Positions 1 to 58,529 of a stretch of DNA of 64,000 nucleotides are shown in pieces. Made by a program: the position numbers and the translations under genes. Position 1 is the first letter of the stretch. Each line of letters starts with the position of its first letter. A model generated the notes under the pieces. The model was not told the origin of the DNA. It saw only the letters and a list, made by a program, of their open reading frames with translations, and ran no database searches. This stretch comes from Selaginella moellendorffii (taxonomy: Eukaryota > Plantae > Lycopodiophyta): positions 109,994 to 173,993 of the forward strand of contig NW_003314396.1 in assembly GCF_000143415.4 (NCBI RefSeq), written 5' to 3'.

Positions 1-238
1 GCAACTGAGCCAATATTAAAAGGATGGAAAGAAATTGGACGACGATGACAAGGAGAAGAGAGAGGTGAAGTAGTGGCAGGGGGAGGAGAAGTGATTGAGT
101 AGACATTTCCTTGTTTAAAATAAAATGGCATGTGCCTCAATGTAGTTGAATTTTTATATTTATATACTATATAAAGGTTTGGAAACCTTATTTTACAAGT
201 GGGATAATGACAATTCCCACTTTAACGAAATAAAGCTT
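1..238 (-). mobile_element. Left terminus (with TIR at 215-238) of a second, inverted copy of the large DNA transposon
   Basis: Reverse complement of ~18764-19003 with few substitutions; ends in TCCCACTTTAACGAAATAAAGCTT, the TIR sequence. Confidence 0.9.
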
Positions 239-768
239 ATGTTCCAGAAGGGGAACTAAGGAAGGTGGCCTTAGAAGAGTGTCATGACGGACCTCTTGCG
301 GGACACGGCGGAGTGCCCAAGACGATGGGCTTACTCAAAAGGAAGTACCATTGCCAGATATGGCTAAGGACGTCCAAGACTATGTAAAGACATGTCCAAC
401 ATGTCAGCAGGTAAAAGCCGTGACTAAGGCTAGTGGGGGCTTGTTGCAAAGCATCCCAATTCCAGATCGCCCGTGGAAATGTCTTACGATGGACTTCATC
501 ACGGGACTCCCCCCAAGCGAGGGGTTTGATGCGATATTCGTGGTGGTGGACCGATTTTCGAAAATGGCACACTTCATACCCACCACAACGGAGGTGGATG
601 CGGAAGGTGTGGCAAAGCTGTTCTTCGAACAAGTGGTTCGAGTGCGGGGAAGACCGGAAGAGATCATCTCAAATCGAGATAAGATCTTCACCAGTAGGTT
701 CTGGAGGACTCTCCTAGAACAGTATCACACCAAGTTGAAATTCAGCACAGCCTATCACCCACAGACAG

Positions 769-814
769 GTATGGGGTATTAAGTCAAGTTGTTGGCACTA
801 TCACTTCTTGACAG
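769..814 (+). other. Putative spliceosomal intron 1 in integrase (46 nt), duplicate copy
   Basis: CAG|GTATGG...TTCTTGACAG|AC; removal restores HPQTDGQTER. Confidence 0.85.
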
Positions 815-1232
815 ACGGACAAACGGAAAGGGTGAATAGGCAGCTGGAGGATTATTTGCGATGCTATGTCTCGGGAGACCAGACCGATTGGGTAAGTCAT
901 TTGGGACTTGCGGAAATGTGTTATAACAACTCACCACATTCGAGTATCGGGGTGAGTCCATGGGAAGTCATCAATGGGCGAGCTATTGAAGGTCCTGTGG
1001 AACTCGGCATGGCCGAGTATCATGGAGAGTTACCCGTAGTGGAGGCATTCACGGCGGAAAGACTCAGCATTTGGAATCTAGTGAGGGATTCCTTGGAACG
1101 GGCTCAACAAAGGCAAACCAAATACGCGACCCAGAAGCGTCGGGAGGTAGAGTTCCAAGCTGGGGAGAAGGTGTGGCTGAACACCAAGAACCTCAGACTA
1201 CCAAGCGGGATCAGCCGAAAGTTGACCCAAAG

Positions 1233-1284
1233 GTAAAGATGCAAGTATTCCTGTAAATGAATTGATCTTGAGTTCCTTAAGCAG
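1233..1284 (+). other. Putative spliceosomal intron 2 in integrase (52 nt), duplicate copy
   Basis: AAG|GTAAAG...TTAAGCAG|GT; removal restores KLTQRFAGPY. Confidence 0.85.
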
Positions 1285-2069
1285 GTTCGCGGGGCCTTAC
1301 GAGATTGAGGCACGAATCGGTAAAGTGGCTTACCGACTCCGACTTCCTCGAGAGATGCGGAAGATGCACCCAGTGTTCCACGTGAACTTACTCAAGCCGT
1401 ACTTTGAGGATCCGCTTCGCAAGGACCAAGTGAGACCTTTACCTGAGGTTATCCAAGGGGAAGAGGAATATGAAGTCGAGGCCATCCTCAATGCGCGCAA
1501 GAGCAAGCGACAAGGACGCGAGGTGAGAGAGTTCCATGTGAAGTGGAAAGGATTTCCACACTGCGAAGCAACATGGGAACCGGAGGAGAACCTAGCAAAC
1601 GCACGAGATCTAGTGGAGGAATTTCTGCAAGGCAGAACTCTATGTACTTATGCAAAATTCAATTAAAAATATCAATTTGCAAAGTTGAGCAAGTGGCATA
1701 TGTTGGGACCCGAAGGCGCGCCGAAGGTAAGCTAATTAGCATGGGTTGGATAGGTCGACCAGGCGTAGGGCACTACACCCGACTCCCCGCGGGGATGTCG
1801 AATCCGTAGACGTATTCTACAGAGGTTGGGTTCGAGTCCCAACCCCCTAGTAAAGCAAGGCTGGGTTCAAGTTCCGACCCCATACTAGGGCGTGGTGAGG
1901 TGAGGAGTATAGGGACACCTATATTCCGTTGTCATGGGCTCTTGGCCGGGGAGGCTAACTTAGGCACACCGCTAAGTGGGGGGATGCCCCCAGGGACATG
2001 GTCAACAAGTCGTAGGATAAAACGAGATGTTCGATGTGGGCATTGAACTTCTTCTATGGGTGGTGGAGT

Positions 2070-3228
2070 TGTAAGGAACCGACTCCCCGAGATGTCGTAG
2101 GCTAAAGGATCCCCAAAAGCTTGACCAAAATGACAAAGAGTTCATCGGATGGGACCAAGTCGAGGATCGAGTCCAAGACCGACTCTAGGACCGAGTTCGA
2201 GATAGAGTCCGGAATCGAGTCGAGACCGACTCGGGGAACGAGTTCAAGTCCGAGTTTGAGACCGAGTTCGAGAAGGAGTCCGAGATCCGAAATCAGGGCC
2301 GAGACCGAGTCCGAGGTCGAGTTCAAGGTCGGGTCCGAGATCGGGTCCGAGATCGAGTCCGAGATTGAGTCCGAGACCGAATCCGAAGTCGGATCCGAAA
2401 TCGGGTCCGAGATCGAGCCAGAGACTAAGTCCAAATACTAAAACGGGTCAAGGGGTGAAAGCCCAAAGCGTGCGTCTCCCAGGGGGGGGGGGGGGGGCTG
2501 CAGGGGGTTCCAAAAGTATAGTAGGGATAGTGAGGTCCAGGAACCAGTTTTGAAGGGACTCTCCAGTTGGGCTTCCAAACCGACTTGAGGTTGAGACTGG
2601 GACCGAGGGGCCTTGGGTGGGAGTGAGCATGGACTTGGCTGGTGCCGGAGGGGCCATCCAAGGAAGTGCTCAAGAGCAGCTCCCACTCTCGAAAGGGAAA
2701 CCGACTGCGGTGCTCCCGGCTCAGGTGGAGTGGTGCCCCACTTGAGTACCTTGTGGATTGGTCCTCGCCCTTCCGGGGGCTTGGGCCTTCCCTTCGGGAT
2801 GGAAGAGGGGGGGTAGAGGTACCCATACCGGGCTGTTAGGCCACGGTGTTTCGCCCCGACGTCCCGAAGTAAGTGCTGCACCCAAGGCTTGGGATTTAGA
2901 GGGTCCCATGATCAAGTCTTGTGGTACCAAGGGGTGTTAGGAATCTGGAGGCTTGGTGTGCTTGGCTGCTTGTGCCTGCGGGGAGTGTAGCCGAACCTTA
3001 AGTCCAGTCTAACCCGGGGAGGGGGATTGGGAGAGATTTGGGAATCCGTAGATGGATGGCTAACACTCCGTTGCTCGTGCAGTGAGTAGCTGAAACCAAG
3101 TAGGACCAAGTAGGAGCTGGTACCATAGGCGAGAACCTTGGCGAGGGAACTTAGCACAAGCCAAGGCAGAGTTGGTCAGATAGACGAGGTGAGCTAGCAA
3201 ATTGGAAAGGAAAAATTTGTGGCTTACA
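2070..3228 (+). repeat. LTR, family A (3' LTR of duplicated segment)
   Basis: TGTAAG...CTTACA ends, preceded by PPT-like GGGTGGTGGAG; near-identical to 33130-34285. Confidence 0.95.
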
Positions 3229-4117
3229 GTGGGCTCATGCAATTTTGAACCCAAAAATGCACCAAAAAATGCTCGACTAGCATTATTCTTTGAATGGCGT
3301 GTGGCCTTATATTGCCATAAATGAATGTACACACACAGCATAATTATTCTTTTACACAGCGAATAATCTTGGCGCGGATCACTGACACGGCATGGCAAAG
3401 TTCTAATCACTGACATGGCACAGCTGGATCGAGGCAAGGACATGATGTGACAAAGTTCAACCTCCGACAGCAAAATCTAGAAGCTACTCAGTTTGAAATT
3501 TGTCAGAGGAATCATAAGATCTGGTTTGTCAGAGGATTTGATGTGACGTTCAAGCGTGTGTTATTTTTGAATTCTCGAACTCATTCCTAGGTCTATCATT
3601 TTTGTGCGCCGTGTTCTTGGTTCCGCTGAGCGCAGTGAGCGCTGCTTGTGTAAGCGGCGTTGTGAGCTGTGGTTTATGCGTCTACAAGCAGTTGCGGCAT
3701 TGCGAGTGCCATTGCGAGCGGCAGTTTATGCGAGTGGCAGTTTGTGCGAGCGGCGCTACGAGCAGTTGTGGTGTTGCGAGCGGCACTACAAGTAGTTGCG
3801 GTGTTGCGAGCGGCACTGTTTTTGGTGTGGCTACCGCTTCCTCTTGATATTCGGCACTTGTGTTTCTTGGTATGTTCACCATGGAATGGCTTAGGACCAC
3901 ATTTAGAAATGGCATGAGGCCACATGCCATCTTGGGCCCTTGCAATTTCATGGCTAGCGTATTGTCATGTATGTTTTTACAAACATAAGTCTTGCAAGCG
4001 TTCAAAGAGTCTTTATATCGAGAATTGTAGTGATATCATTGTGGACATAAGGATGGGAACAAACATTACAAACTAAAGTCTATGGTGACTACAAAAGAAG
4101 CAAAAGTTCTTCATGAA

Positions 4118-11500: not shown

Positions 11501-12278
11501 CATGGCACATTTTGCTGTCGATGAGATACCCTCTGTTCTCATCCTTGGATCCTATGATCCCCCCCATCCTTCGTGGAGTACCACACACCTCAGTCTAAAT
11601 GCTTCCATCAGTCCTTTAGGACCATTCCCTGACTCTACTTGAGTCATCCAGCAGTTTTGGACTTGGTTAATCCATAGACCCATAAGGTCCTACTTGTGGG
11701 GCATTAGCTCACTGGAATACATTTCTTGCATTCATGTCCTCACTCACAAGGACTATTTTCACAAGTGTTACTCTGACACTTGATTTTGTTCTCTGGGGCA
11801 ACCTTTGCCCCTTAGGACTACTCGTCCATGTGATGAGAATACCAACTCATCTCTAAGTACACCCCCTAACTCCTTGGGTTGTTCCAGCATTTATTAAAGG
11901 TAGCCCCGGCTACCATTTCAAGGACTTGAGCCCTCTTCCGTATTTGACCTCCCACAGTCATTACTTCTGGTCTCACATTAATGAGCACCAACCTCAATTA
12001 TATGAGGATAATCTTGTGACTCCTTTATTGCTTTGGAGTCTTTATCTTTCACGTGATCCCAACTATAGTTGTTTATCACAACTACGTTAGCCCGTTTGTT
12101 GCATCAAACACTCATTTGGATCACATCCTCAGCTCTCTGAGGAAACCTTATACTGTTCCCAAGATCCCAAAGTCGTTCCATTATTGGCCCCTTTTCTATC
12201 CACCACATTGTGCTGAAGTTCACGCATGAACTTGAGTGGAGAGCCATGTCCTCTCGACATACTACTCCTCAAGGATAA
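8506..12278 (-). repeat. Diverged second copy of the family C internal region, inserted in the 3' LTR
   Basis: Colinear with ~12851-15893 (starts TCTCCAACTTAGA, ends CAAGGATA) with many substitutions and indels. Confidence 0.8.
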
Positions 12279-12364
12279 GGACTCTTCTAGAACAATATCG
12301 CACCAAGTTGAAATTCAGCACAGCCTATCACCCACAAACAGGTATTGGGTATTAAGTCAAGTTT
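12278..12364 (+). repeat. Captured fragment of family A integrase including the 5' half of intron 1
   Basis: Matches 31766-31850 (RTLLEQYRTKLKFSTAYHPQT|GTATTGGGTATTAAGTCAAGTT); donor GT at 12342-12343. Confidence 0.85.
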
Positions 12365-18763: not shown

Positions 18764-18787
18764 AAGCTCTATTTCGTTAAAGTGGGA
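18764..18787 (+). repeat. Left TIR AAGCTCTATTTCGTTAAAGTGGGA
   Basis: Inverted match to 39902-39925 and to 215-238. Confidence 0.92.
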
Positions 18788-23514: not shown

Positions 23515-23900
23515 TGACATTCTGCGCGTGGGAGATGTATATGATAGATCGGAGGGGCGAGTTGCCTTTTATCAGGCGGACAATGCTTGTCTTGAAGACT
23601 TTCTTCACCTCCTCACCCACCATAATATCCACAACTATCTCTTGCATCGCCAAGCTAGAATGCTGCCCGGAGACGGCATAGAACCGGATGTTCTGATCGT
23701 CCAACACCTTCCTATTGATCAAATTTGGAAACCTCATCTCGCCCTTCATTTTTTGGTAGTAGGGGATCACGTCTGCGATGTCGGGTGTTACTGGACTTGC
23801 CAGCATCTTCTGCTTCAATTTCTCCACCCACTCATCAGATACTAGCCTGTGGTTGTATTTGCTTTGGATGTCGATATGGCTCACGTCGATTGTATATACT
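23515..23900 (-). CDS. ParB/sulfiredoxin-like domain within cargo gene
   Basis: Pattern IDVSHI...HRLVSDEWVEKLKQKM...ADVIP...FYAVSGQHSSLAM...IVRLI...ISHAQN follows the ParB/Srx motif order (GxHR-like = GQHS; EN-like = QN). Recognised by eye. Confidence 0.6.
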
Positions 23901-26085
23901 TTGTTGGAATAGTAACAAGTACTATTATCTGCGACGATTTTTGCTGCCTCTTCTTGCTCTTTCTGCTCTTTGCGGCTCTTCTTTTTGGTGGGTGTAGTGT
24001 TCGAACCCGAGGCAATGGCATCACCGAGTAGCTTCTTTTTTGGAGCAGAAGAGTCGGACGTCGGCTTGAGCTTGACCACCCTTTTCTGCTTCGGGGTAGT
24101 TTCCAGATCGACCCCCTTCCCCTTCGCTTCGCGAACTGGAGGCACTCTCAACGGCTCAATGTTGGAATATAGTTTTTAAACATCGCCGTAGGTGAGGTCC
24201 GTGGATTCCATGTGATCTTCATAGACCCGTAGCGTCTTTGAAATTGTGGGCCTCCTGGACAACCTCTCCCTAGCTCCCTCTAGGAATTCCTCATAGCCGC
24301 TGCCCCCCTCCGGGAAGCTGCTAGGATGTGCAAAGTGGATCTTGAAGGCAGACGTTGTCTCTACCACAAGTGCCAGTCCATATTCTTGCATGGAACTGCA
24401 TGGAGTGTCTGTCACTTGGATGAGGATCCCCATGCATTCTTTTCTCCCACCATCTGTGTTGTACAGCCTCAGATCCTCGCCTTCCATCCCGAAAGTCCAA
24501 CTGGTGAGCTCCTCCCCCTTCTCTACATCCACATTGACAGTGGCTGGAAGAAGAATGCAATTCCTCGCCTGTTCCAAAATGCACAACAATTAGAGCTGAC
24601 AGATGAAAAGCTAGCAGCTGGAAATAACGTAAGGCCACACGCCATTCACCACTGCATCAGATGTCTTGAGGCTGCATCCTAAGATGGCATGAGGCTACAC
24701 GCCATCTGTAACCGGACTACACTCAAGAGCCCAATCGGTGCATGCCAATGTTGCTACTGAATGGCATGTGGCCTCATGCCATTTTCTACTTGGCCTAAAA
24801 GACTTACCATTTGAAGCCGAATGAAGGCGTGACAATCGAGGCCGGACTCGCTGGCGAATGTGCATTGTGTGTGCAGCGGATCGTAGCAGCAAGGCTACTC
24901 TGCCACTTACAGTTGGAGAGTGGCGCTGAAATCTCCCGGGACGCCAAGTGGGCTGCATGTGGGTGGCGGAGTGGGCGGCGGAGTTGGCGGCAAAGTTACA
25001 AACTGGGTGTGTCTTGAAGTGGACGCCGATGCACACGAGCGCGATGCGAGCGCGAGTGTGATGCAAGCGCGAGTGGACGCCGATGCACATGAGAAACCTG
25101 TAGAGAAGGTAGATGAGCGCGAATGTGAGCGTGATCGCGAGTGGGAGCGCGATGCGAGCGCGAGTGTGCGAGCGCGAGTACGAAGCAAAATGCAAAACCT
25201 AACCTCACACGCGCGAAATGTCACGACGGTTGGTAATCCCGCCACGTCATCATTCCTCGGACTTGGGCGCCACCATTAATTTCTGGATCGCCGCGCGCAT
25301 GCATGCACGTGAAATCCAAAAGAAATCCGCAACGTCATCATTCCTCGGACTGCATGCATGCGAAATCCAAAAGAAAGATCATGATTGGGATATCATTTAA
25401 TACCCTCGCTATATTTATACCATGCATGATTGGATATTCCAAAGCATCTTGTATTTCCAAAAATGCCAGATGTTCAGCCAAATAAATTGTCAGAGGATTT
25501 GATGTGACGTTCAAGCGTGTGGGCTCATGCAATTTTGATCCTAAAAAATGCACCAAAAAATGCTCGGCGTCATCTGGCGTTATCTCTTGAATGGCGTGGG
25601 GCCACATGCCATTTTCAGGGGCACATAGGAGTATATTCCTAGAATATTCTAATACGCACGAGATTGTTTTGAGTTTTTTGGAGATCCAACCGTTAGATCG
25701 CAACTAGATTTTATAGAATGGTATACAATGTCTTTCTTGATGACCCTGCAAAGAAGCATCTCGATCGGACACCACATGAGACCACACGAGCCTTACAATG
25801 TTTCAGGGGCATTTGCCATAGATCCGACCGTTATTTTGCTCCAAGATTTTACAGTTTGGTGTGCATTGACCTTTCCATTGACACTGCAAAGGGACATCAC
25901 AATCAGATGTGGGATCACAAGAAACTAACTTCACTAACTCTGGTTTCACCAAGATCTATGTAAGGAGTTCTGAAATGAAAGGACCCTCTCTATTGAAATG
26001 TGTTTATGGTCCTAGGGGCATTGTGACATATCAAAGGATTTTGCATCAAGTTCTGTATTTGCATGTTTATCAAGCTACTGAATTG

Positions 26086-26105
26086 CTAAACCCTAAACCC
26101 TAAAC
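26086..26105. repeat. Short plant telomere-type repeat (telo-box-like)
   Basis: CTAAACCCTAAACCCTAAAC. Confidence 0.6.
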
Positions 26106-26452
26106 ATGTGGCAAATGCTGCGTGAAGAAAGATGCCCTTTCTGGGCAAATGCTGTAAGAGGCAGATGCCGAGCAGATGTATCTCAGGCTAGCGAAGGGGA
26201 CAAACGAAAGCTAGCTATAAACATGACGGGATGCAAATAGATTACTAGGCTGGTCCTACGAAAATCAAAAACCATAATTGAAAACATTGAAAATGCAAAA
26301 AGAAAGGTTTATAATATTTTTGAATTTTAAGCAACCAAAGGAATGTAAGTAGGGCATGTGTTTGTAAGTTTAAAAATGCCTCAACCACTTAAATTCCCAA
26401 GTAAATAAAGCTGTTTCCATTTTTGGTACAGGTAAACTTTATAGCGTGTGGG

Positions 26453-27586
26453 TGTAAGGAACCGAATCCCCGAGATGTCGTTGGCTAAAGGATCCCCAAA
26501 AGCTTGACCGAAATGACAAAGAGTTCATCGGATGGGACCAAGTCGAGGATCGAGTCCAAGACCGACTCTAGGACCGAGTTCGAGATAGAGTCCGGAATCG
26601 AGTCTGAGACCGACTCGGGGACCGAGTTCGAGTCCGAGTTTAAGACCGAGTTCGAGACGGAGTCCGAGATCCGAAATCAGGGCCGAGACCGAGTCCGAGG
26701 TCGAGTCCGAGGTCGGGTCTGAGATCGAGTCCGAGACCGAATCCGAAGTCGGATCCGAAATCGGGTCCGAGATCGAGCCAGAGACTAAGTCCAAATACTA
26801 ATACGGGTCAAGGGGTGAAAGCCCAAAGCGTGCGTCTCCCAGGGGGGGGGGGCTGCAGGGGGTTCCAAAAGTATAGTAGGGATAGTGAGGTCCAGGAACC
26901 AGTTTTGAAGGGACTCTCCAGTTGGGCTTCCAAACCGACTTGAGGTTGAGACTGGGACCGAGGGGCCTTGGGTGGGAGTGAGCATGGACTTGGCTGGTGC
27001 CGGAGGGGCCATCCAAGGAAGTGCTCAAGAGCAGCTCCCACTCTCGAAAGGGAAACCGACTGCGGTGCTCCCAACTCAGGTGGAGTGGTGCCCCACTTGA
27101 GTACCTTGTGGCTCATTGGTCCTCGCCCTTCCGGGGGCTTGGGCCTTCCCTTCGGGATGGAAGAGGGGGGGTAGAGGTACCCATACCGGGCTGTTAGGCC
27201 ACGGTGTTTCGCCCCGACGTCCCGAAGTAAGTGCTGCACCCAAGGCTTGGGATTTAGAGGGTCCCATGATCAAGTCTTGTGGTACCAAGGGGTGTTAGGA
27301 ATCTGGAGGCTTGGTGTGCTTGGCTGCTTGTGCCTGCGGGGAGTGTAGCCGAACCTTAAGTCCAGTCTAACCCGGGGAGGGGGATTGGGAGAGATTTGGG
27401 AATCCGTAGATGGATGGCTAACACTCTGTTGCTCGTGCAGTGAGTAGCTGAAACCAAGTAGGACCAAGTAGGAGCTGGTACCATAGGCGAGAACCTTGGC
27501 GAGGGAACTTAGCACAAGCCAAGGCAGAGTTGGTCGGATAGACGAGGTGAGCTAGCAAATTGGAAAGGAAAAATTTGTGGCTTACA
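26453..27586 (+). repeat. 5' LTR, family A
   Basis: Direct repeat of 33130-34285, differing by scattered substitutions and an indel in the hexamer array. Confidence 0.97.
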
Positions 27587-27589
27587 ATT

Positions 27590-27602
27590 TGGTATCGGAG
27601 CC
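27590..27602 (+). promoter_or_regulatory. Primer binding site (tRNA-iMet)
   Basis: TGGTATCGGAGCC 3 nt after the LTR; one mismatch to the canonical TGGTATCAGAGCC. Confidence 0.9.
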
Positions 27603-30487
27603 TCTTCCTCAGTTCTAGCAAAGGATAGAGGCGGATTGCTGGGAGATGGCAAGGGCAGGACGTAAGCGAACCCAGGCGGAGACGGAACCCCCTCCAGAGC
27701 TAGAGCCTCCGGTCGAACAGGAGGCTATGGATGAGGAATCGTTGCATGAGGAGGACTCCAGTGAGGCAACTTCCAAACAGGAGTCCGGTGGTGAGGTTCG
27801 GTCGTCCAAGGCTCGATTGGACGTTCTAGAAGGACAATTGGCAGAGACCAATGCACTGCTAGAGACTCTCGTACGCAAGCTAAAGCGTGACGAGAAGCGG
27901 AAGAAAAAGCGAAAGACTGTGGATGCTAGTAGCGCAGAAGGTGCAGACCCTTCGGCAGGGACTGAGGCAAAACCAGACAAGGTCGAACAGACCGAAGTGG
28001 AATCAGTCCCTCAGGCAGTTCCCAAGTACAAACCGAAGCCCCCACCGGTCTTCAAGGGAGTGAACGACTATAAGGTGGTGGAGGATTGGTTTTACGATAT
28101 GGAGGACTACTTCCGAGCGTTGCGATTACCGAGCTCGGAGAAGGTCCCATGTGCAAAACCATACTTGGCAGATAATGCCAAGTCTTGGTGGAGAACAACG
28201 GAGGCCAACGAAGGACCGGTGGCCACTTGGGAAACGATGAAGGCGAGGATCCGCGCAACTTACGTTCCTCCGAATGCTACTCTGCACCTAAGAGACGAGT
28301 TGAGTAGGCTGAAGCAGACCGGAACCATTTAGGAGTATGTGAATGGGTTTATGGCAAAGAGGATACTTGTCACGGACATGGGGGATATGGATGCGTTCCA
28401 TGCCTTCATATCAGGTTTGCAAACCTGGGCTCGTGGCGAAGTAATGCGGTGGAACCCGACCAACTACAAGGAAGCGTTGGATGCGGCCATCAAGGTGCAT
28501 TTCAACGATAACCTGCGAAAGGGGAACACGACGGGGTCGGGATCCACGTTTAGCAAAGGGGCCAAACCAAGGGGAACGTTTAGCAGAGGGAAATTCAAGA
28601 GGAGTTTCTCTAAGAATGAGTCCTCGGGGTTCCGGAAAGGCAAATCCGGTGGCCAGTGAGCGAGTACATTTGGGAGTCAAGCGAAAAGAGACAAACCCAC
28701 GGATAAGAAGGTCAAGTCGTATAGCAGCGTGGGAAACAACGTATGCTACAACTGCGGTGAAGCAGGACACTTCTCGAGGGAATGTCCCTACCCGAAGAAG
28801 GCTAGAGCCAATATGGCCATCAAGTCGGGTGAAGTCCAAACGGAGGTATGTGATCCAGTCCCTAACTCAAAGTTACTCATTACACGAGCAACTTTGGTAG
28901 AGAGTCGTTCGCGACATCTACTAGCCCTCCGAGGGAAGCTCGGAGGTAGCTTTGTTAAAACCCTTATTGACACGGGTGCTTCGGATGATTTTGTGGCTGC
29001 AAACATAGTCTGGCAAGCCGGACTAACGGTGCAGTGGCTAGGCGAACCAAGGACTATAGAGTTTGTTCAAGGTAGCCAAAGCACCGATGAGGTACTTCGA
29101 CAAGCGAGAGTCGAAGTGGGGACTTGGAAGGTGGACATGGATTTCACCGTGTTGGACATGGCGGGATTTGACGTGATCTTCGGAATGGACTGGTTCAATC
29201 GATTCGTGGTAGCCCTGCATGGACAAGATAGAAACCTTGTGGTACTGGCGAATGCCCAAGGAAGAAGATCTAGGGTGGAGGCCCAAGATCTAAAGGTAGG
29301 GCAAAGCAAGGCCAAAGATTCCTGCTTAAACCTGGTGTCCACGAGAGGACAACTCACTAAAGGAACTAAGGCGGCCTTTTTGTGCTTACTCTCGGTGAAG
29401 AGTGACAAAAAGACAGGAATGGAAGAAGTACCTTTAGTGATCCAGCGGGTGTTGGACCAATTCCAGGATACCATGCCGGAGGAGCTACCGGCGGGGCTAC
29501 CCCCAGCACGACCGATAGAACATAAGATTGAGCTGGTCGAGGGTGTTGAGGCAGTGGTTCGTACCCCTTATCGTTTGAACGAAAAAGAACTCAAGGAGCT
29601 CAAGTGCCAACTAGAAGAGTTGGTGGACAAAGGGTATGTTAGGTTGAGCAAGTCGCCGTATGGGGCACCGGTGTTATTTGTGAAAAAGAAAGATGGATCT
29701 ATGCGCATGTGCATAGACTACCGGTTGCTCAACAAGTATACAAAGAATAACAATTACCCTTTGCCAAGGATTGAGGACCTGTTCGATAGGTTGGGAAAGG
29801 CAAAATACTTCTCGAGGATTGACCTAAGGTCAAGATACTACCAAATCAGGGTAGCCGAGGAAGATGTCGAGAAGACAACCTGTCGAACGAGGTATGGGAG
29901 ATTTGAGTTTTTGTTGATGCCCTTCGGGCTATGCAATGTGCCGGCAACGTTTTCGGCGCTAATGAACCACATCTTTGTACCCTATCTGGATCACTTCGTG
30001 GTCGTCTATATCGACGACATCCTGATCTATAGCGAGACTCTAGAGGAGCATGCCGAACACTTAGCGAAGGTGTTTGAGAAGCTAAGGGAACACAAACTAT
30101 ATGCTAAAGAGAGCAAATGTGACTTTGCTCAACAAGAGGTAAAGTTTCTCGGGCATGTGGTGGGCCAAGACGGGCTCAAGGTGGACCCGGAGAAGGTCCA
30201 AGCGATCCAGGAATGGGAGCGACCATCCAATGTACACGAGTTGAGGGCATTCCTGGGGCTATGCAACTACTATCGAAAGTTTATCAGACACTATTCGAGA
30301 GTAGCCCTGCCCTTAATGGACCAAACAGGAAAAGGGAAGATGGTGTGGACAGCGGAATGCGAGGCGGCATTCGTCCACCTCAAAGGGAAGTTGAGGAAGG
30401 CTCCCGTATTGGCATTACCAGACTTTGGTAAGGACTTTGAGGTAGAAACGGATGCTTCAAACTTTGCGTGACGTTAGGCCGTCCATC

Positions 30488-30837
30488 NNNNNNNNNNNNN
30501 NNNNNNNNNNNNNNNNNNNNNNNNNNNNNNNNNNNNNNNNNNNNNNNNNNNNNNNNNNNNNNNNNNNNNNNNNNNNNNNNNNNNNNNNNNNNNNNNNNNN
30601 NNNNNNNNNNNNNNNNNNNNNNNNNNNNNNNNNNNNNNNNNNNNNNNNNNNNNNNNNNNNNNNNNNNNNNNNNNNNNNNNNNNNNNNNNNNNNNNNNNNN
30701 NNNNNNNNNNNNNNNNNNNNNNNNNNNNNNNNNNNNNNNNNNNNNNNNNNNNNNNNNNNNNNNNNNNNNNNNNNNNNNNNNNNNNNNNNNNNNNNNNNNN
30801 NNNNNNNNNNNNNNNNNNNNNNNNNNNNNNNNNNNNN
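30488..30837. other. Assembly gap (350 N)
   Basis: Run of N. Confidence 1.
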
Positions 30838-31828
30838 AAGGCTCAACGGAAGTGGCCTACCCACGAGAAGGAATTGTTTGCGGTGGTCAAGGCGCTCAAG
30901 GAGTGGCGACACTACCTTGGGAGACACTTCAAGGTTTACACGGACAATGTGGCAACGAAACACTTCTTGTCACAGCCTGAACTAAGAGGGAAACAAGGTT
31001 GGTGGGCCATTGCCTTGGCTGAGTTTGATTGCGAGATTCTGTACAAGCCTGGGAAGAGCAACATCGTGGCGGATGCGCTAAGTCGAAAAGCGAGCTTGAG
31101 GTTGGCAATATCCAGCGCAACAGCAACCTTCTGGGACGATGTGCGGACAGCATATGAGAATGATGGTCTAGCACAAGAAGTGTTGCTGAGGAATCTAGAG
31201 GAGCGGGAAGCTCACCAGAGAGGTGAGCTGCCAAAGGAAGAGAAAACGGGCTATGCGGAACGCAACAGACTCATCTATTACAAGCAAACGAGGGTGTATG
31301 TTCCAGAAGGGGAACTAAGGAAGGTGGCCTTAGAAGAGTGTCATGACGGACCTCTTGCGGGACACGGCGGAATGCCCAAGACGATGGGCTTACTCAAAAG
31401 GAAGTACCATTGGCCAGATATGGCTAAGGACATCCAAGACTATGTAAAGACATGTCCAACATGTCAGCAGGTAAAAGCCGTGACTAAGGCTAGTGGGGGC
31501 TTGTTGCAAAGCATCCCAATTCCAGATCGCCCGTGGAAATGTCTTACGATGGACTTCATCATAAGACTCCCCCCAAGCGAGGGGTTTGATACGATATTTG
31601 TGGTGGTGGACCGATTTTCGAAAATGGCACACTTCATACCCACCACAACGGAGGTGGATGCGGAAGGTGTGGCAAAGCTGTTCTTCGAACAAGTGGTTCA
31701 AGTGCGGGGAAGACCGGAAGAGATCATCTCAAATCGAGATAAGATCTTCACCAGTAGGTTCTGGAGGACTCTCCTAGAACAGTATCGCACCAAGTTGAAA
31801 TTCAGCACAGCCTATCACCCACAGACAG

Positions 31829-31874
31829 GTATGGGGTATTAAGTCAAGTTGTTGGCACTAACACTTCTTGACAG
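31829..31874 (+). other. Putative intron 1 in integrase catalytic core (46 nt)
   Basis: CAG|GTATGG donor, branch-point-like CACTAAC, pyrimidine run, CAG acceptor; contains an in-frame TAA; splicing restores YHPQTDGQTERVN. Confidence 0.88.
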
Positions 31875-32292
31875 ACGGACAAACGGAAAGGGTGAATAGG
31901 CAGCTGGAGGATTATTTGCGATGCTATGTCTCGGGAGACCAGACCGATTGGGTAAGTCATTTGGGACTTGCGGAAATGTGTTATAACAACTCACCACATT
32001 CGAGTATCGGGGTGAGTCCATGGGAAGTCATCAATGGGCGAGCTATTGAAGGTCCTGTGGAACTCGGCGTGGCCGAGTATCATGGAGAGTTGCCCGCAGT
32101 GGAGGCATTCACGGCGGAAAGACTCAGCATTTGGAATCTAGTGAGGGATTCCTTGGAACGGGCTCAACAAAGGCAAACCAAATACGCGAACCAGAAGCGT
32201 CGGGAGGTAGAGTTCCAAGCTGGGGAGAAGGTGTGGCTAAACACCAAGAACCTCAGACTACCAAGCGGGATCAGCCGAAAGTTGACCCAAAG

Positions 32293-32344
32293 GTAAAGAT
32301 GCAAGTATTCCTGTAAATGAATTGATCTTGAGTTCCTTAAGCAG
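32293..32344 (+). other. Putative intron 2 before the integrase GPY motif (52 nt)
   Basis: AAG|GTAAAG donor, AT-rich body, GCAG acceptor; in-frame TAA; splicing restores SRKLTQRFAGPYEI. Confidence 0.88.
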
Positions 32345-33129
32345 GTTCGCGGGGCCTTACGAGATTGAGGCACGAATCGGTAAAGTGGCTTACCGACTCC
32401 GACTTCCTCGAGAGATGGGGAAGATGCACCCAGTGTTCCACATGAACTTACTCAAGCCGTACTTTGAGGATCCGCTTCGCAAGGACCAAGTGAGACCTTT
32501 ACCTGAGGTTATCCAAGGGGAAGAGGAATATGAAGTCGAGGCCATCCTCAATGCGCGCAAGAGCAAGCAACAAGGACGCGAGGTGAGAGAGTTCCATGTG
32601 AATTGGAAAGGATTTCCACACTGCGAAGCAACATGGGAACCGGAGGAGAACCTAGCGAACGCGCGAGATCTAGTGGAGGAATTTCTGCAAGGCAGAACTC
32701 TATGTACTTATGCAAAATTCAATTAAAAATATCAATTTGCAAAGTTGAGCAAGTGGCATATGTTGGGACCCGAAGGCGCGCCGAAGGTAAGCTAATTAGC
32801 ATGGGTTGGATAGGTCGACCAGGCATAGGGCACTACGCCCGACTCCCCGCGGGGATGTCGAATCCGTAGACGTATTCTATGGAGGTTGGGTTCGAGTCCC
32901 AACCCCCTAGTAAAGCAAGGCTGGGTTCAAGTCCCAACCCCATACTAGGGCGTGGTGAGGTGAGGAGTATAGGGACACCTATATTCTGTTGTCATGGGCT
33001 CTTGGCCGGGGAGGCTAACTTAGGCACACCGCTAAGTGGGGGGATGCCCCCAGAGACATGGTCAACAAGTCGTAGGATAAAATGAGACGTTCGATGTGGG
33101 CATCGAACTTCTTCTATGGGTGGTGGAGT

Positions 33130-34285
33130 TGTAAGGAACCGACTCCCCGAGATGTCGTAGGCTAAAGGATCCCCAAAAGCTTGACCAAAATGACAAAGAG
33201 TTCATCGGATGGGACCAAGTCGAGGATCGAGTCCAAGACCGACTCTAGGACCGAGTTCGAGATAGAGTCCGGAATCGAGTCCGAGACCGACTCGGGGAAC
33301 GAGTTCGAGTCCGAGTTTGAGACCGAGTTCGAGACGGAGTCCGAGATCCGAAATCAGGGCCGAGACCGAGTCCGAGGTCGAGTCCAAGGTCGGGTCCGAG
33401 ATCGGGTCCGAGATCGAGTCCGAGATTGAGTCCGAGACCGAATCCGAAGTCGGATCCGAAATCGGGTCCGAGATCGAGCCAGAGACTAAGTCCAAATACT
33501 AATACGGGTCAAGGGGTGAAAGCCCAAAGCGTGCGTCTCCCAGGGGGGGGGGGCTGCAGGGGGTTCCAAAAGTATAGTAGGGATAGTGAGGTCCAGGAAC
33601 CAGTTTTGAAGGGACTCTCCAGTTGGGCTTCCAAACCGACTTGAGGTTGAGACTGGGACCGAGGGGCCTTGGGTGGGAGTGAGCATGGACTTGGCTGGTG
33701 CCGGAGGGGCCATCCAAGGAAGTGCTCAAGAGCAGCTCCCACTCTCGAAGGAAACCGACTGCGGTGCTCCCGGCTCAGGTGGAGTGGTGCCCCACTTGAG
33801 TACCTTGTGGCTCATTGGTCCTCGCCCTTCCGGGGGCTTGGGCCTTCCCTTCGGGATGGAAGAGGGGGGGTAGAGGTACCCATACCGGGCTGTTAGGCCA
33901 CGGTGTTTCGCCCCGACGTCCCGAAGTAAGTGCTGCACCCAAGGCTTGGGATTTAGAGGGTCCCATGATCAAGTCTTGTGGTACCAAGGGGTGTTAGGAA
34001 TCTGGAGGCTTGGTGTGCTTGGCTGCTTGTGTCTGCGGGGAGTGTAGCCGAACCTTAAGTCCAGTCTAACCCGGGGAGGGGGATTGGGAGAGATTTGGGA
34101 ATCCGTAGATGGATGGCTAACACTCCGTTGCTCGTGCAGTGAGTAGCTGAAACCAAGTAGGACCAAGTAGGAGCTGGTACCATAGGCGAGAACCTTGGCG
34201 AGGGAACTTAGCACAAGCCAAGGCAGAGTTGGTCGGATAGACGAGGTGAGCTAGCAAATTGGAAAGGAAAAATTTGTGGCTTACA
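33130..34285 (+). repeat. 3' LTR, family A
   Basis: TG...CA ends, preceded by PPT-like GGGTGGTGGAG, followed by the TSD. Confidence 0.97.
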
Positions 34286-35237
34286 GTGGGCTCATGCAAT
34301 TTTGAACCCAAAAATGCACCAAAAAATGCTCGACTAGCATTATTCTTTGAATGGCGTGTGGCCTTATATTGCCATAAATGGACGTACACACACAGCATAA
34401 TTATTCTTTTACACGGCGAATAATCTTGGCGCGGATCGCTGACACGGCATGGCAAAGTTCGAATCACTGACATGGCACAGCTGGATCGAGGCAAGGACAT
34501 GATGTGACAAAGTTCAACCTCCAACAGCAAAATCTAGAAGCTACTCAGTTTGAAATTTGTCAGAGGAATCATAAGATCTGGTTTGTCAGAGGATTTGATG
34601 TGACGTTCAAGCATGTGTTATTTTTGAATTTTCGAACTCATTCCTAGGTCTATCATTTTTGTGCGCCGTGTTCTTGGTTCCGCTGAGCGCAGTGAGCACT
34701 GCTTGTGTAAGCGGCGTTGTGAGCTGTGGTTTATGCGTCTACAAGCGGTTGCGGCATTGCGAGCGCCATTGCGAGCGGCAGTTTATGCGAATGGCAGTTT
34801 ATGCGAGCGGCGCTACGAGCAGTTGCAGTGTTGCGAGCGGCGCTACGAGTAGTTGCGGTGTTGCGAGCGGCACTGTCTTTGGTGTGGCTACCGCTTCCTC
34901 TTGATATTCGGCACTTGTGCTTCCTGGTATGTTCACTATGGAATGGCTTAGGACCACATTTAGAAATGGCATGAGGCCACATGCCATCTTGGGCCCTTGC
35001 AATTTCATGGCTAGCGTATTGTCATGTATGTTTTTACTTGCCTGCAGCTGTGTGTATATCAAGATAGCATGAGGCCTCATGCCAATTTTGTGAATGCAAA
35101 ATTTCACGTGGGTGTCAATAGCATGTTTGAATAATGGCATGTGGCCTCATGCTATTGAGGTTGTTTGGTATGTTATGATTTTGGCCATTCTCCAATCATT
35201 TTTTGTATGGTCTTAACTTCTTTTCTGCACTTTCAGA

Positions 35238-38200
35238 ATGGCCTTCAGGGTTGGGGAAAAGGTTTACATTTTGAATGGTGGGAAGAGAGTTGCAAAAGGG
35301 ACCCTTGTGTCTATGGATCAGAACTTTGTTATACACTGTCAAAGGCTTGGGGAAGGCAATGCTGCTGTATCAGTAGAGACTGTCTTCGATGGGAATGTGG
35401 TTGCTATTGAACGAGGAGAGATGGTCGTCGGGGTAAATATTGTTGTTGCCTTGAAAAATCTTCAGAAGAAAGCAGATGTTGGGGACAGTGCAAGTGCGAC
35501 GCATGTTCCCTCCGTGGATTTTAAGAACCGTGCTACATGGATTCAGGCAAAGGTGTTTCTAAACAACCCCGAGGGGGAGGTGGTAGCTGAGGGCTTAGCC
35601 ACAGTTGTCGATCCAAGAGATGCGGTTGCTAATCAAGAATTGGGCTGGGATGATATTGGAGTTGCGATTTTAGAGGTTGTTGACACAGAAGAAAACAGTC
35701 TGACTATTGGAAGCATTGTACGGTGGAAATTGAGGCACTTAGTGTTTGAGAATGTGAAGGATTCACAATCAAACACCATTACAACTGATGACAGAACATC
35801 TCTTCATGGGAAAAGAAAGTACACCTTCCTAAAGCGCAGCCAAAGGGATCTAAGCAACGAACCGAAAAGGTAGAAAATGGCGATGGAGGTTCGAATGGTC
35901 TCGACAGTTGCTTGTTGCAAGAGGAGGTGCTGTCAGCATGCTGAGGGATGCTATTGAAGAGGAGAGAGCAAGATACAAGACATTGTCCTAGAAGGCAGCT
36001 CCCAATTTTGTGTATGAGGCATTACGGTCATCTGTTGATGCTTCAGAACATCAGGTGGGGGGCATGGTCTTCCAGAGGGGTTTGGTCTGCATGAAGGCAT
36101 GGAGAATCATTTATAGAGTCCCTCGAACCACATTCTATAGAATCAAAACTGAGTTCGAGGAACAAAGGGTTCAACAGGCAGTCCATGAGAACGACGGTAC
36201 GCACAAAACCAGGGGTCATGTTGTATATGGAGAGGCAATCTTCAAGAGGTTTGTCGAGATATGTAGCGAGCAGCAACCACATAAAACCCACCTCTTGGAA
36301 GATGGAACACGAGACACCCAACGAGTTCTCCCTTCCATGTATACCAAGGGGGCCATATTGGAAGATGTGAATCGGGAACTCCAGAGTAATGGCTACAGGA
36401 AGCTGAGCCAATCTAGATTTAGTAGATTGTGGAGCAACAAGTTCAGGGATGTGAGTATAGGAAAGTACTCCAGTTTTCAAAGTGTGACGAGTGCACTACT
36501 ATCAAAATGGCTTTGTCGAAGAATTCTTGCAGCGCTCAAGAGCGAGAGATGTTGGTTAGAAGGCGGCTCGACCACAACATCGAGCAGAGAAGCTGCAGGA
36601 CTGCATATTATCATAACAGGATTCTCTCCATGGAGAGACCTGACTCTTACTTCTGCATCATCCACGACAAAATGGATCAGAAAAAGACATGCTTACCTCG
36701 ACTCAATCCTGCCTCCAAGGCAATCTCTTCATCCATGCAGCTGCCTGTGTCTCTGTTTGGCATAATCGCTCATGGGCATGGTGCCCAGAACTATGGGAAC
36801 TTCTTTGTACCTCTATGGGGTGGCGGGGTGCAAACATGATGATTGCGTCCCTAGCAAAACACTTAAGGTCTCTACAAAGTGCGCAGACTGAGCTGAACGG
36901 CCAACCCTTGCATAAGGCCCTTGTCGATCGAACCCCATACAGGGTTCAGCTGGAGGAGGAGCAAAGGCTTGCAGTATCGCATGGGCCCCCATGCCATCCC
37001 AGTGAATATGTTGGCCGTCAGATTGTAGGGTTATCACGTGAGGCCTCATGCCATTCCGACGAGGCTGGTCGCCCGGTGAATGCACAGCCTCATCCAAACA
37101 AAGCAGAATCTCAAGGAAGTTCTTGCGGCCGATGTGGCCTTCCACCCCATCTTCTGCTCCAAACAGACAATGCTGGCAGTGAGAACAAAAACATGTACGT
37201 CTTCGCGTACTTGGCGATGCTTGTTGCCAAAGGCATATTTGAAACGGTTACACTTGGCTTTCTCATGGTTGGGCACACTCATGAAGACGTCGATGCCATG
37301 TTCAGTCACCTGGCAGAGTCCCTCCGGCAATCCAATGTCCTCACCCTCCCACAACTCTACGATGAATTCCAAAATTGCATCAAAGGCACTGTTGAAGCTG
37401 CACTTGTGACAAAGGTTTCAAACTTTAAGGGGTTTGTAAGAGGCTACATCAGGGACGGATCCAAAACGCTGATTGGCCACTCCAAGCCTCTTCAGTTTCA
37501 TTTCAGCATGCGTGACGGTGCTCCAGTGATGAGGTACAAGATGAGAGAATGGGACACAGTGTGGCTGCCAGTGGACAGCATTGAACTCTTCAAGAGAGAT
37601 CCCATAACTGGGGAACCTATGATTCCTCAGGGTTCCCCACGGCCGATGCACCCGGATGGACTCAAAGACCAGGAAAGTATAGTGGCCGGGATTAGACAGC
37701 ATATTGCCTTCTGGAAGAGGGTGTTGGTGTTTGGTGGAGAATCCTATTTTCAGAGGTGCAAGCCTTTGCTCGAATACTAGGAGAAGATTATATCTGCTAT
37801 CCAAAATGGGCCAGTTGTATATGAAGAATTGGAAGAGTCCTTTTGGCCAGAACCCAGAGCACCAGATAGTAGCGGAACAATGTCCTCTAGAAATGCAGTG
37901 ACAGATAACGATGTTGAGGATCACTATTGTGGGCCGAGGAACAAGAAGCCGAATTCAGCATTCAATCCAGTACAGGTCTGCAAAGGAATGGTCGTGCTTG
38001 TCAGACCCAGTAATAAAAAACAAATGATATGGGTGGGGCGCTGCATCACTGATGTAGAGGAGGACACGGAAACTAACTCCTTCAATGTAACTGTGGAGTG
38101 GTTCAAGCCAAGTTCCGGATATACGAAGGATTGCCTAGAAAAGAGATGGGTGCTCAATCCAAGGGATCCCAGCATGAGCATATCGGTGGATAATGTTGTG

Positions 38201-38302
38201 CATGGTTGGATGCGGAAGCAGAGTGCCACCATCACCTTGCCGGACCATGCAAGAGATGCAACAAGAGCATTCATAACCCGGGTTCAAGGTGAGATTCATT
38301 AA
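35238..38302 (+). pseudogene. Transposase gene (RNase H-fold DDE/D type, DUF7869/Sola-like motifs), disrupted
   Basis: In order: two N-terminal beta-barrel-like repeats (VAKG/VAEG...LG), CCxxxCC, VCMKAW..IY HTH-like region, FSKCDEC, IIHDKMDQ, LQTDNAGSENKN, FLMVGHTHEDVDAMFS, C-terminal SH3/Tudor-like region. Stops at 35871, 35989 and 37778 plus frameshifts. Superfamily not verified. Confidence 0.75.
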
Positions 38303-39901: not shown

Positions 39902-39925
39902 TCCCACTTTAACGAAATAGAGTTT
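39902..39925 (-). repeat. Right TIR (AAACTCTATTTCGTTAAAGTGGGA on the minus strand)
   Basis: 23/24 match to the left TIR; abuts a truncated LTR A. Confidence 0.92.
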
Positions 39926-42480: not shown

Positions 42481-42649
42481 CTGGTTGATGTGGATTATCA
42501 GGGGAGTTTGTTTTGACATTGCAGAGTTCAACCATTAATGGCAATGAAGGAGAGGATGGTGGAGATCACTGGCCATATCTCTGCAGTAACGATTCTCACA
42601 TCAGAAAAGGAGGAAAACATTCTCAAAGCAAGAAAACAAAAAGGGAGTG

Positions 42650-55900: not shown

Positions 55901-58260
55901 AACTCAATATCAATCCTAAAAAAAGACATCTCATTTCACTCAAATCTCAACATCAATAATGTCAATGACAAGCCATCACTTCAATGCCATCAACACTAAA
56001 ACAAAGCTAGAAGAAAGTAAGAGTGAATCACCACTCAAAACTCTTTAGCAGCCAAGTTAACCAAAATCAAAGATACCCTAGTTAGTATCTGAGACAAATC
56101 GTCTAACAATACTTACTTACGGATAACACCTCATCAAGGAGTGATTTACCACGTTCAAAACTCAATGAAATTCAACACTATAGACTAAATGTAACCAAAT
56201 GACATTGTCAAAGGTAGAATCGTTATGCCAACATGGAAAAACCATGCAAGTTTAACGACACGATCCTCTGTAACACCATCCGGTAAAGCAAGCCCATTAC
56301 TGCTAAATCATCATCGAGCAAAACAAGTGTCAACAATCCTTGACAAAGTTTACAAGTAATCAGTAGTCGCAAAGCAACTAACAATCACTCTTCAACTTGA
56401 ACACGACAATGACTACTTAAACCAATAGACTAATCCCTACAGTTTTGATTGATCCACTTATAATCATGCTTAGGAAGGATCCACTAGTGCCATGCTAAAC
56501 AACTACAGACCAGCCTATTTGCCACTCATAGCAAACCCAGAGGAGGTTCACTTTCACCCACGGTACATGGAAGAACTCATGGAATCACCGATAGGCTAAC
56601 ATTAATCTTGCCAACTCAAAGTGTAACTTTGAGTTGCTAATGCGCCGCACTCACAAGCCCAAGCGCAAACTCGTACAAACAGAACAACTCAATCTATCCA
56701 ACTTATGAGCTCAAGCAAAAGCTTATATATTCTAGTACGAAAGGTAACCAAAATCAATACCCAAAGAAACGATTGTGAAGCCTTTGCACCCAAATGTGTA
56801 CCGAATGGGATCATCGTTTTCATCTCTATGTATGCAACGAGACTAGTTGCCCAATCTCATTGTATAGTACTCGCTAAGATTCATTCTCTAATACCAAATG
56901 TAGCGCACGTGGTTTTTACCTTTTATCCTATGATGATTTACCATAAGATAACCACAAAGCGGAACCTAAACCCTCTTTGTGCCACGTGACAGATGCCATG
57001 TGTCACATGCCACATGTCCAAAGGACAATGGTGTGGAACCTGAGTTTCAAGGCCTTGAGCCACTAAATGAAGGAACGGTGCCAAACTCCCAAACATGGAG
57101 CCAAGGAGCAATGGCACTGGGGCACGGAACAACTCCCGAGCATATAGCCCAAAGAGCAAAGGGATAGGAACACAGAGTGACTTGGAATAGTCCTAAAGTG
57201 TCCAACATGTTAATGCCAGGACTAGCATGCAAAATGGAGCTAAATGGAGTTTGGCACTATTTCAACATATCGGTGGCCTAACACAAGGATATAAGTACTC
57301 TACCACCTAGCATGGTATGGAACTTATTTAGGTCTTATTTAGTCCTTGCAAAGCAAATCCTCAAAATACGGCTTGAGTAAGTTCACATGGAACACAAGGT
57401 GCATCTTCCCCATCTCTCGAGGAAGTCAGAGGCGGTAAGCCACTTTACCAATTCGTGTCTCAATTTCGTAAGGCCCCGCAAACCTGCTTAAGGAACTTAA
57501 GATAAGTTTATTTCTAGGAATACATGAATTTTTACTATTGGGTCAACTTCCAGCTGATCCCACTTAGTAGCCTTAGATTCTTAGTGTTCAGCCACACCTT
57601 TTCCCTAGGTTGGAACTCTATGTCCTGGCAGTTCATATACTTAGTCTACCTTTGTTAAGCTTGTTCCAAGGAATCCTTCACTAGATTTCAAATGTTGAGC
57701 ATTTCTGCCATGAATGCCTCTATTGCGGGTAACTCTCTATGATACTCGGCTATACTGAGTTCCACAGAACCTTCTATACCTCGCCCATTAATGACTTCCT
57801 ATAGTGACTTCCTATAGCTCGCCCATTGATACTCGAATGTGGTGAGTTGTTATAACATATTTTCGCAAGTCCCAAATAACTTACCCAATTGATCTAGTCT
57901 CCAGAGATATAGCATCGCAAATAATCCTCTAGCTGCCTATTCACCCTTTCTATTTATCCATATGTCAAGAAGTGTTATTGCCATCAAACTTGACTTAATA
58001 TCCAATACATGTCTGTGGGTGATAAAATGTGCTAAATTTCAACTTGGTGCAATACTGTTCTAGAAGAGTTCTCTAGAACCTATAAGTGAGGATTTTATCT
58101 CGATCTGAGATAATCTCTTCTGGCCTTCCCTGCACTTGAATCACTTGTTTGAAGAACAGCTTCACCACACCTTCCACATCCACTTCTGTTGTGGTGGGTA
58201 TAAAATGTGTTATCTTCAAAAACCGGTCCACCACCATGAATATCGCATCAAACCCCTTGC
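52950..58260 (-). mobile_element. Older diverged family A copy: partial 3' LTR (to 53340), PPT and 3' UTR (53341-53556), integrase (~57330-58260); interrupted by a family B element
   Basis: Reverse-complement similarity to 33130-33810, 32880-33129 and 31577-32500; both intron homologues present (57484-57535, 57962-58008). Confidence 0.85.
53557..57325 (-). mobile_element. Family B LTR element: LTR 53557-54667, non-coding/decayed internal region, PBS 56886-56896, truncated LTR 56899-57325
   Basis: Two direct LTR copies homologous to the solo LTR at 4118-5261; PBS TGGTATTAGAG on the minus strand; no gag/pol ORF visible. Confidence 0.8.
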
Positions 58261-58529
58261 GTGAACTTGTAGGGAAGCATAGTGGATTGTAAGCATATAA
58301 AAAAAACTTTGAGAAATAATGTATAGTGTCCAAATGTAAAAGGAAAGGGCCCATGAATAAGAGTACATCCCTTTTTTCCAATTAGTTAAGGGTCTTGGGA
58401 TATTTGGAGTTAAATGTTTTTGGTTTTGAATAGTACTTAATTGAGTGACCTCCTAGGAAGTCCAAATTCAAAAGTTTATATTTGGTATTAGGTATCCTTG
58501 CAATGGTAGCTAAGAATATATTTAATAAA

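Follow-up and report, generated by a model that had tools for sequence, protein, structure and literature searches.

That an element moves through RNA is classically proved by showing that it loses an intron placed within it. Functional introns in plant LTR retrotransposons are credited to Ogre and EVD only in the cited part of a 2025 review (PMC12786077). As the cited excerpts describe them, Ogre (Ty3/gypsy, Tat lineage) has an intron between protease and reverse transcriptase (RT) that some of its transcripts lose by splicing (PMC6317226, PMC12786077); barley BARE1 has a packaged RNA pool that is unspliced, uncapped and distinct from the translated pool (PMC3735527); and in CRR the RT is spliced out (PMC3735527, PMC5580714). 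For Ty3/gypsy elements of Arabidopsis, the part of PMC5580714 cited here reports that no conserved splicing was found.

SM1-Galahad is a Galadriel-related chromovirus of Selaginella moellendorffii (Novikov et al. 2012, PMC3350952). The main text of that paper gives the family a length of 7.5 kb, LTRs of more than 1 kb with a poly-G tract, a 13-bp Met primer site, and a group I chromodomain that has substitutions in its chromo box; the copies reported number in the hundreds, none of them intact. Its coding capacity is described as a 1295-aa ORF ending in the integrase core, plus two ORFs of 316 and 309 bp. A second family, its sister SM2-Galahad, has a single ORF of 1577 aa, and families are delimited there by more than 80% nucleotide identity to the reference (PMC3350952). 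A text search finds neither 'intron' nor 'splic-' in the main text of PMC3350952. Our literature search, outside whose scope lay most subscription journals and the large REXdb tables, turned up neither an intron within the integrase of an LTR element nor any intron described for Galahad elements.

Here, we describe a chromovirus in a 64,000-nt stretch of S. moellendorffii DNA (hereafter, the window) whose integrase is interrupted by two short inserts. We consider it very probable that these inserts are real introns which the integrase needs.

Results

A full-length chromovirus hosts both inserts

The inserts lie within a full-length Ty3/gypsy chromovirus at 26453–34285 on the forward strand (the main copy; 7483 nt without its N gap; Table 1). 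The element has the Gag-PR-RT-RH-IN order, LTRs running from TG to CA, a 5-bp target-site duplication, a primer site and a polypurine tract, all as in chromoviruses. Pfam domains follow in the order Gag, zinc knuckle, protease, RT, RNase H, and integrase zinc finger and core, with the SH3 and chromodomain in a later frame. We take the primer site at 27590–27602 to be of tRNA-Met type. This agrees with the description in PMC3350952. The two LTRs differ at 12 of 1132 aligned columns (98.9% identity), with a further 26 gap columns.

Judged by its sequence, the main copy is dead. Its gag-pol frame contains stops at 28330 and 28657, and RNase H is broken by 19 foreign nucleotides (30469–30487) followed by a 350-N gap (30488–30837). 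The second triad position of the integrase (~31732) is non-acidic, while in the older copy at 57–58 kb it is acidic. Around 20 codons are expected where the N gap sits, and positions 30469–30837 possibly represent a nested insertion or an assembly join.

Table 1. Parts of the element, the candidate leader splice and further copies carrying the inserts (positions within the window).
Feature	Positions	Strand	Remarks
Left target-site duplication, GTGGG	26448..26452	.	Right copy at 34286–34290
5' LTR, 1134 nt	26453..27586	+	TGT..ACA; 12-nt repeat array and 11-nt poly-G tract (26842)
Candidate leader splice	27547..27612	+	Donor-like GAG/GTGAGC in U5 to pyrimidine-rich AG at 27612 (or 27618)
Primer-binding site, presumed tRNA-Met type	27590..27602	+	13 nt
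gag-PR-RT-RNase H-integrase (N-part) frame	27646..31842	+	Ends inside intron 1
Putative intron 1, 46 nt	31829..31874	+	Phase 1; GT..AG; branch-like CTAAC at 31858; GACAG at both junctions
Exon 2, remaining integrase core	31875..32292	+	Includes the presumed catalytic Glu; the published 'ORF2'
Putative intron 2, 52 nt	32293..32344	+	Phase 2; GT..AG; AGGT at both junctions; from sequence and homology, outside RNA read coverage
Exon 3, GPY/F-SH3 domain and group I chromodomain (~32529–32687)	32345..32726	+	The published 'ORF3'
Polypurine tract	33116..33128	+	
3' LTR, 1156 nt	33130..34285	+	
98% (98.1%) duplicate of 31297–35037	238..3980	+	Includes 750 nt of right flank; introns at 769–814 and 1233–1284
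86-nt fragment (95%)	12278..12363	+	Exon 1 end and 5' half of intron 1; beside 12-nt repeat array
Older decayed copy (83%)	57330..58263	-	Other context; introns of 47 and 52 nt; retains the donors of both introns but not the acceptor of intron 1

The inserts have the borders and composition of spliceosomal introns

The borders of the two inserts were set by homology rather than by their GT and AG ends. Both inserts begin with GT, end with AG and have a length of 3n+1; if retained, they lead to in-frame stops, which follow HPQTGMGY in insert 1 and KLTQR in insert 2. The initial annotation had reported GT-AG inserts of 46 and 52 nt with these properties, and all of them are found. The inserts are poorer in GC (0.41 and 0.35, respectively) than the flanking coding DNA (0.49–0.52) and richer in T (0.33, versus 0.19–0.22). 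CTAAC lies 17 nt before the 3' end of insert 1, and insert 2 carries a weaker branch motif, TTGAT, at 32322; both donors match seven of the nine consensus positions. The sequence features of a U2 intron—GT..AG ends, a branch-like motif and U-richness relative to exons—are thus present.

GT..AG pairs 40–60 nt apart are common, with 183 in the integrase region, so such ends say little by themselves. The junctions can slide by only 5 nt and 4 nt, however, and rough arithmetic puts the chance of GT..AG ends at both at ~6/256 x 5/256, or ~5e-4. The coincidence of these ends with both homology-defined inserts argues against chance. Neither insert shows an unusual fold (z between -0.83 and +1.01; insert 1 has z -0.83 and no unusual hairpin), which leaves an origin of the introns from a MITE-like or other structured element unsupported.

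Removal of the inserts was said to restore two conserved integrase motifs and the reading frame through the chromodomain, and the alignments bear this out. With an X placed at each junction, the three coding pieces are free of stops. Junction 1 corresponds to one residue, without a gap, in 120/120 aligned homologues (D in 110, N in 10), and junction 2 is gap-free in 90 of 103. In an alignment with Ty3 (PDB 7q5b), piece 1 extends to residue 1267 and piece 2 starts at residue 1269; against P0393, a continuous homologue of 1578 aa, the two junctions fall at residues 1320/1322 and 1457/1459. Across junction 1, 35 residues separate the second acidic position of the triad from the catalytic Glu (positions 298 and 334), both of which we presume to be those of the DDE motif. 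Insert 1 therefore falls between this Glu and the other two triad positions. An unspliced polyprotein had been proposed to end just before this Glu; it does so, with the retained insert 1 giving HPQTGMGY and a stop, and the Glu encoded in exon 2. The chromodomain (PF00385, E 4.8e-15) lies in exon 3, so that its fusion to the integrase requires the splicing of both introns.

The other gypsy families of the window are uninterrupted at these sites, as the initial annotation also held: 47276–48652 is a 457-aa ORF over the integrase domains, and both motifs are contiguous in 61820–62953. These stretches belong to two reverse-strand elements, at 47276–49522 (integrase uninterrupted) and at 61655–63946 (integrase uninterrupted, with non-canonical residues in the HPQ motif).

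The element is likely SM1-Galahad

The element is likely SM1-Galahad, as compared by published sizes rather than by aligned sequence. Its first frame amounts to 941 + 333 aa plus a 21-aa spacer, i.e., 1295 aa, if the N gap hides the spacer of the closest relative; the spacer is 21 aa long in 21 of 47 measured homologues and 25–27 aa in the others. Counted from their first ATG, ORF2 and ORF3 are 318 nt and 309 nt; the LTRs measure 1134 and 1156 nt, and the poly-G tract 11 nt. The published multi-copy consensus shows an ORF break at the same place (PMC3350952, in the part cited). That paper describes three ORFs; here they are read as one spliced gene. This reading is what is new; the element is probably a known family with a misread gene structure.

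Among the proteins fetched, P0393 is the best or joint-best match, with 67% identity in RT and 52, 43 and 50% in the three integrase pieces. It has the same domain order in one continuous ORF and is contiguous at both insert sites. By its length (1577 aa in print for SM2-Galahad) and features, we identify it as an SM2-Galahad-like element. In a quick RT tree of 39 rows without clade labels, P0393 is sister to the element (SH-aLRT 82, unstarred), and the two fall inside a group with seed-plant elements (SH-aLRT 87, unstarred). Since P0393 and all other homologues are uninterrupted, the introns appear to have been gained in the SM1-Galahad-like lineage, likely after its split from the uninterrupted sister family. 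The repeats at the junctions (5 nt at the first, AGGT at the second) fit the pattern of intron gain by repair or duplication, and Selaginella has short introns.

Protein searches found no close relative: exon 2 reached at most 58% (2 matches of 35 candidates), the N-part of the integrase at most 52%, and RT at most 65%; among the best 150 representatives the maximum was 50%. HPx[TS]x stands directly before the Glu motif in 111/130 representatives, and 18 of the remaining 19 are variants or start just upstream. P0339 (452 aa) comprises the C-part of an integrase, a chromodomain and an unusual extra C-terminal domain, and starts with MTDGQTE, the motif at which exon 2 also begins. This may reflect another element split at the site of insert 1 or only an artefact of the start call. 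Introns at this codon were also sought with a degenerate pattern (one His codon, introns of 34–64 nt), which gave 0 matches in viral contigs. Its nine matches in metagenome contigs were rejected as chance, none having an integrase or RT match.

Both inserts are retained in family DNA

From DNA run X1, 12,676 family contigs were mapped on 31500–32700. The summed contig depth of 0.45–1.2 million, compared with ~100–200 for single variants, suggests thousands of family copies, as a scale rather than a copy number. Depth bins within the introns (0.47, 0.76 and 0.97 million) lie inside the exon range. None of the seven joints listed for the X1 contigs, some of them at depth 2, removes either insert; the three listed indels are all single-base insertions inside intron 1, none of which removes an intron. 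Precise loss is thus below ~2% or below contig detection, given that a 2% listing filter may apply and that contigs drop rare variants. Most insertions of the family might have lacked the segments, an outcome that the initial annotation held would tell against its reading; the X1 contigs keep both.

Within the window, only two independent intron-bearing insertions are visible. The partial copy at 238–3980 was dismissed as a further one: it shares 750 nt of flank with the main copy and is hence a DNA-level duplicate or a second haplotype. The two lie 31 kb apart, either as a segmental duplication or as a second haplotype assembled in line, and the left end of the partial copy is cut at 238 by another repeat (1–238 matches 18764–19003 inverted). 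Two further relatives are seen. At 6099–7462, in an internally deleted relative, a partial LTR runs straight into the protease-RT region (95% to 29013–29692), and 39920–40898 is a truncated solo LTR of the family (86–88%) that adjoins another repeat at 40900.

The surroundings are rich in other sequences. A second repeat family (7454–8503, 15521–17299 and 40911–42491) carries related 11–12 nt arrays of the GAGTCCGAGATG type. It has the same motif before the poly-G position, is apparently non-coding, and is possibly a non-autonomous relative. Short telomere-like CCCTAAA repeats (26085–26104) lie upstream of the insertion site of the element, and its flank contains a run of ORFs (35217–38302) that includes a DUF7869 protein (36644–37780, E 3e-40) and is probably a DNA transposon. 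On the reverse strand, an ORF at 19206–20105, among repeats, has a weak match to NIF/FCP1-like phosphatases (E 1e-5), and longer unannotated ORFs occupy 21996–24175.

Exons 2 and 3 are conserved behind the stop

Selection was assessed in the 40 of 96 X1 variants displayed, 24 of which lie in exons 2 and 3. Nine variants at a share above 0.9 (five synonymous, four not) were excluded as private to the main copy. Of the 15 segregating changes in these exons (share 0.07–0.70), 13 are synonymous, where a proportion of at most 0.34 is expected (p=4e-5). Against the 83% copy, 14/20 non-deamination differences in exons 2 and 3 (i.e., other than C>T/G>A) fall at third positions (p=9e-4), and the introns differ at 9/98 sites, compared with 12/547 first and second codon positions (p=0.002). 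By these substitution patterns, exons 2 and 3 are under purifying selection, and the introns drift, diverging like third codon positions. Such selection implies that, in lineages which had the introns already, the sequence behind the stop was being translated and was under selection.

A single RNA read skips intron 1

Three RNA runs with the same species label (X22, X23 and X24; ~12% of each read) were mapped on 31500–32700. Reads came from X22 only: four, all at least 95% alike, in 9.2 million records, which indicates very low expression of the family. In bins of 41 nt, the depth of one mate is 4+37+0+40+41+28 = 150 nt; that is, the read spans 31783–31823 and 31870–31978, and the 46 nt skipped between them equal intron 1 once it is shifted left by the 5-nt repeat. 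This single read—the skip being deduced from depth bins and falling under the three-read limit of the joints table—is the only one of the four to cross insert 1, which it lacks (1/1); zero reads reach insert 2. Of the two junctions proposed for an RNA check, 31828^31875 is thus skipped by one read, and 32292^32345 lies beyond read coverage.

The 83% copy already bears the intron, so a read at least 95% alike and lacking it points to splicing, either directly or via a rare intron-less copy. The skip may alternatively be a template jump of the reverse transcriptase at the 5-nt direct repeat during library making; no strong hairpin is present at insert 1 to favour such a jump (z -0.83). In sum, the earlier proposal that active integrase needs splicing is supported by one skipping read and by exon selection. 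As to its second part, that the template stays unspliced, the inserts are kept in family DNA, so the copied template is likely to be mainly unspliced.

A donor-like site in U5

The U5 region contains a donor-like site (Table 1). At least 7/9 donor-consensus matches are reached by 25 sites of the element, this one included, and it is hence a weak candidate. The site occurs in all three close LTR copies, and the candidate leader intron, of 66 or 72 nt, would delete the primer-binding site.

Discussion

We propose that the two inserts are host-type spliceosomal introns gained in the element's own lineage. Unspliced RNA would encode a 1295-aa product comprising Gag, PR, RT, RNase H and an integrase stump that lacks the catalytic Glu, the SH3 domain and the chromodomain. 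Double splicing, which for intron 2 we infer, would give a product of ~1557 aa with a complete integrase and chromodomain. New copies would derive from a separate, unspliced RNA pool while the spliced pool is translated, by analogy with BARE1-like Ty1/copia elements. With mRNA and template in separate pools, reverse transcription would have no means of removing an intron gained in the coding region, which would simply persist. Given that the intron-less sister family thrives, free copying of spliced RNA should let intron-less daughters spread; the absence of such daughters suggests that the two RNAs are sorted. The introns may also lower the output of integrase relative to Gag. We lean, with some reserve, towards this full model with separate RNA pools.

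Several other explanations bear on the same observations. The introns could be real without separate pools, splicing being rare and the packaged RNA unspliced by default; intron-less daughters would then arise and stay rare or unfit, through excess integrase or through an RNA signal lost with the intron. The minimal introns (46 and 52 nt) with donors at 7/9 of the consensus are in keeping with this, and intron-less copies, if rare, could escape notice through the 2% filter and contig assembly. The sole read crossing intron 1, however, lacks it. Moreover, the sister family thrives with a continuous ORF (P0393; PMC3350952, in the part cited), so intron-less daughters should be viable and should have accumulated over a family history spanning 83–99% identity. 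We regard rare splicing as a serious but rather unlikely account. Considerably less likely in our judgement is a family with inactivated integrase, amplified in trans by its intact sister and spliced only incidentally. No intact SM1-Galahad copy is reported in the cited part of PMC3350952, the main copy carries stops in gag and lacks an intact triad, expression is very low, and an intact sister family exists; but the purifying selection on exons 2 and 3 among intron-bearing lineages (13/15 and 14/20) is unexpected if they were never translated, the splice ends fall exactly on the homology-defined borders of both inserts, and one read is spliced.

The inserts might also be bridged by ribosomes, as in phage T4 gene 60, rather than spliced. 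Matching codons do flank them (ACA..ACA and AGG..AGG), a stop directly follows the take-off codon at insert 2, and the gaps are of ~50 nt. The junction repeats produce such codons automatically, however, and the GT/AG ends, the branch-like motif, the T-rich composition and the lack of a strong hairpin, together with an RNA read that is physically without insert 1, speak against hopping, for which we know of no case on plant cytosolic ribosomes; we give it scarcely any credence. We think it nearly as improbable that all intron-bearing copies are DNA-level duplicates of one dead copy, or that the inserts are assembly errors. One copy, at 238–3980, is indeed a duplicate sharing flank with the main copy, and the assembly has N gaps. 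Against this stand the X1 contigs, which cover the inserts at exon-range depth with polymorphisms of their own, the 83% copy in another context, which has both inserts, and the published consensus of hundreds of copies with the same ORF break (PMC3350952, in the part cited).

Under the proposed division into two RNA pools, the introns need not be a regulated switch of the kind first suggested for this locus. A stronger form of that suggestion is that the introns evolved as a gate, in which splicing, dependent on tissue or stress, licenses integration, and a splice in U5 protects the introns. Particles with unspliced RNA would then reverse-transcribe but could not integrate, and splicing would both complete the catalytic triad and add the chromatin-targeting chromodomain. 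A coupled U5 splice over the primer-binding site (27547–27612) would make the spliced mRNA uncopyable, such that the introns are never lost. We hold such a gate to be improbable.

If the spliced-gene reading is correct, a very successful family has gained two introns in its integrase core and retained them through many cycles of copying, which would mean that some LTR elements sort spliced and unspliced RNA tightly. The reading would explain the absence of 'intact' SM1-Galahad copies, and would serve as a warning that autonomous families which rely on splicing are scored as dead in ORF-based screens. It would also provide (i) a natural pair—an intron-bearing family and its intron-less sister, likely within one small model genome—in which to study the choice of template RNA, and (ii) a datable intron gain with junction repeats.

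Compared with described systems, the element resembles Ogre in that the genomic copy keeps an intron interrupting the polyprotein, and splicing of some transcripts would permit full translation (PMC6317226, PMC12786077, PMC3735527, in the parts cited). Unlike Ogre, it has PR and RT in one open frame (28660–30471) and two minimal introns in the integrase, one of them within the catalytic core, and it is a chromovirus. With the introns confined to the integrase, only integration would depend on splicing. On the predicted gene structure, the element works like Ogre and is not an Ogre. It also differs from the Tcn1 clade, described as self-priming without a tRNA primer site (PMC6317226, in the part cited), in having a site of apparent tRNA-Met type at 27590–27602.

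Like BARE1- and EVD-type Ty1/copia elements, it keeps a short host-type intron in the genome (PMC3735527, PMC5580714). According to the cited parts of those papers, splicing in BARE1 and EVD removes Pol to give a Gag-only mRNA, with all enzymes encoded by the unspliced RNA. In the present element the arrangement would be the inverse, since it is the unspliced RNA that lacks a complete integrase. Foamy viruses, as described in the cited part of PMC7828637, are similar in that expression of an enzyme gene requires spliced RNA and unspliced RNA is the genome; in foamy viruses, a suboptimal splice site sets the level of expression. Their splice takes out gag to yield a subgenomic pol mRNA and pol itself is intron-free, whereas in the element described here the putative introns lie inside the integrase.
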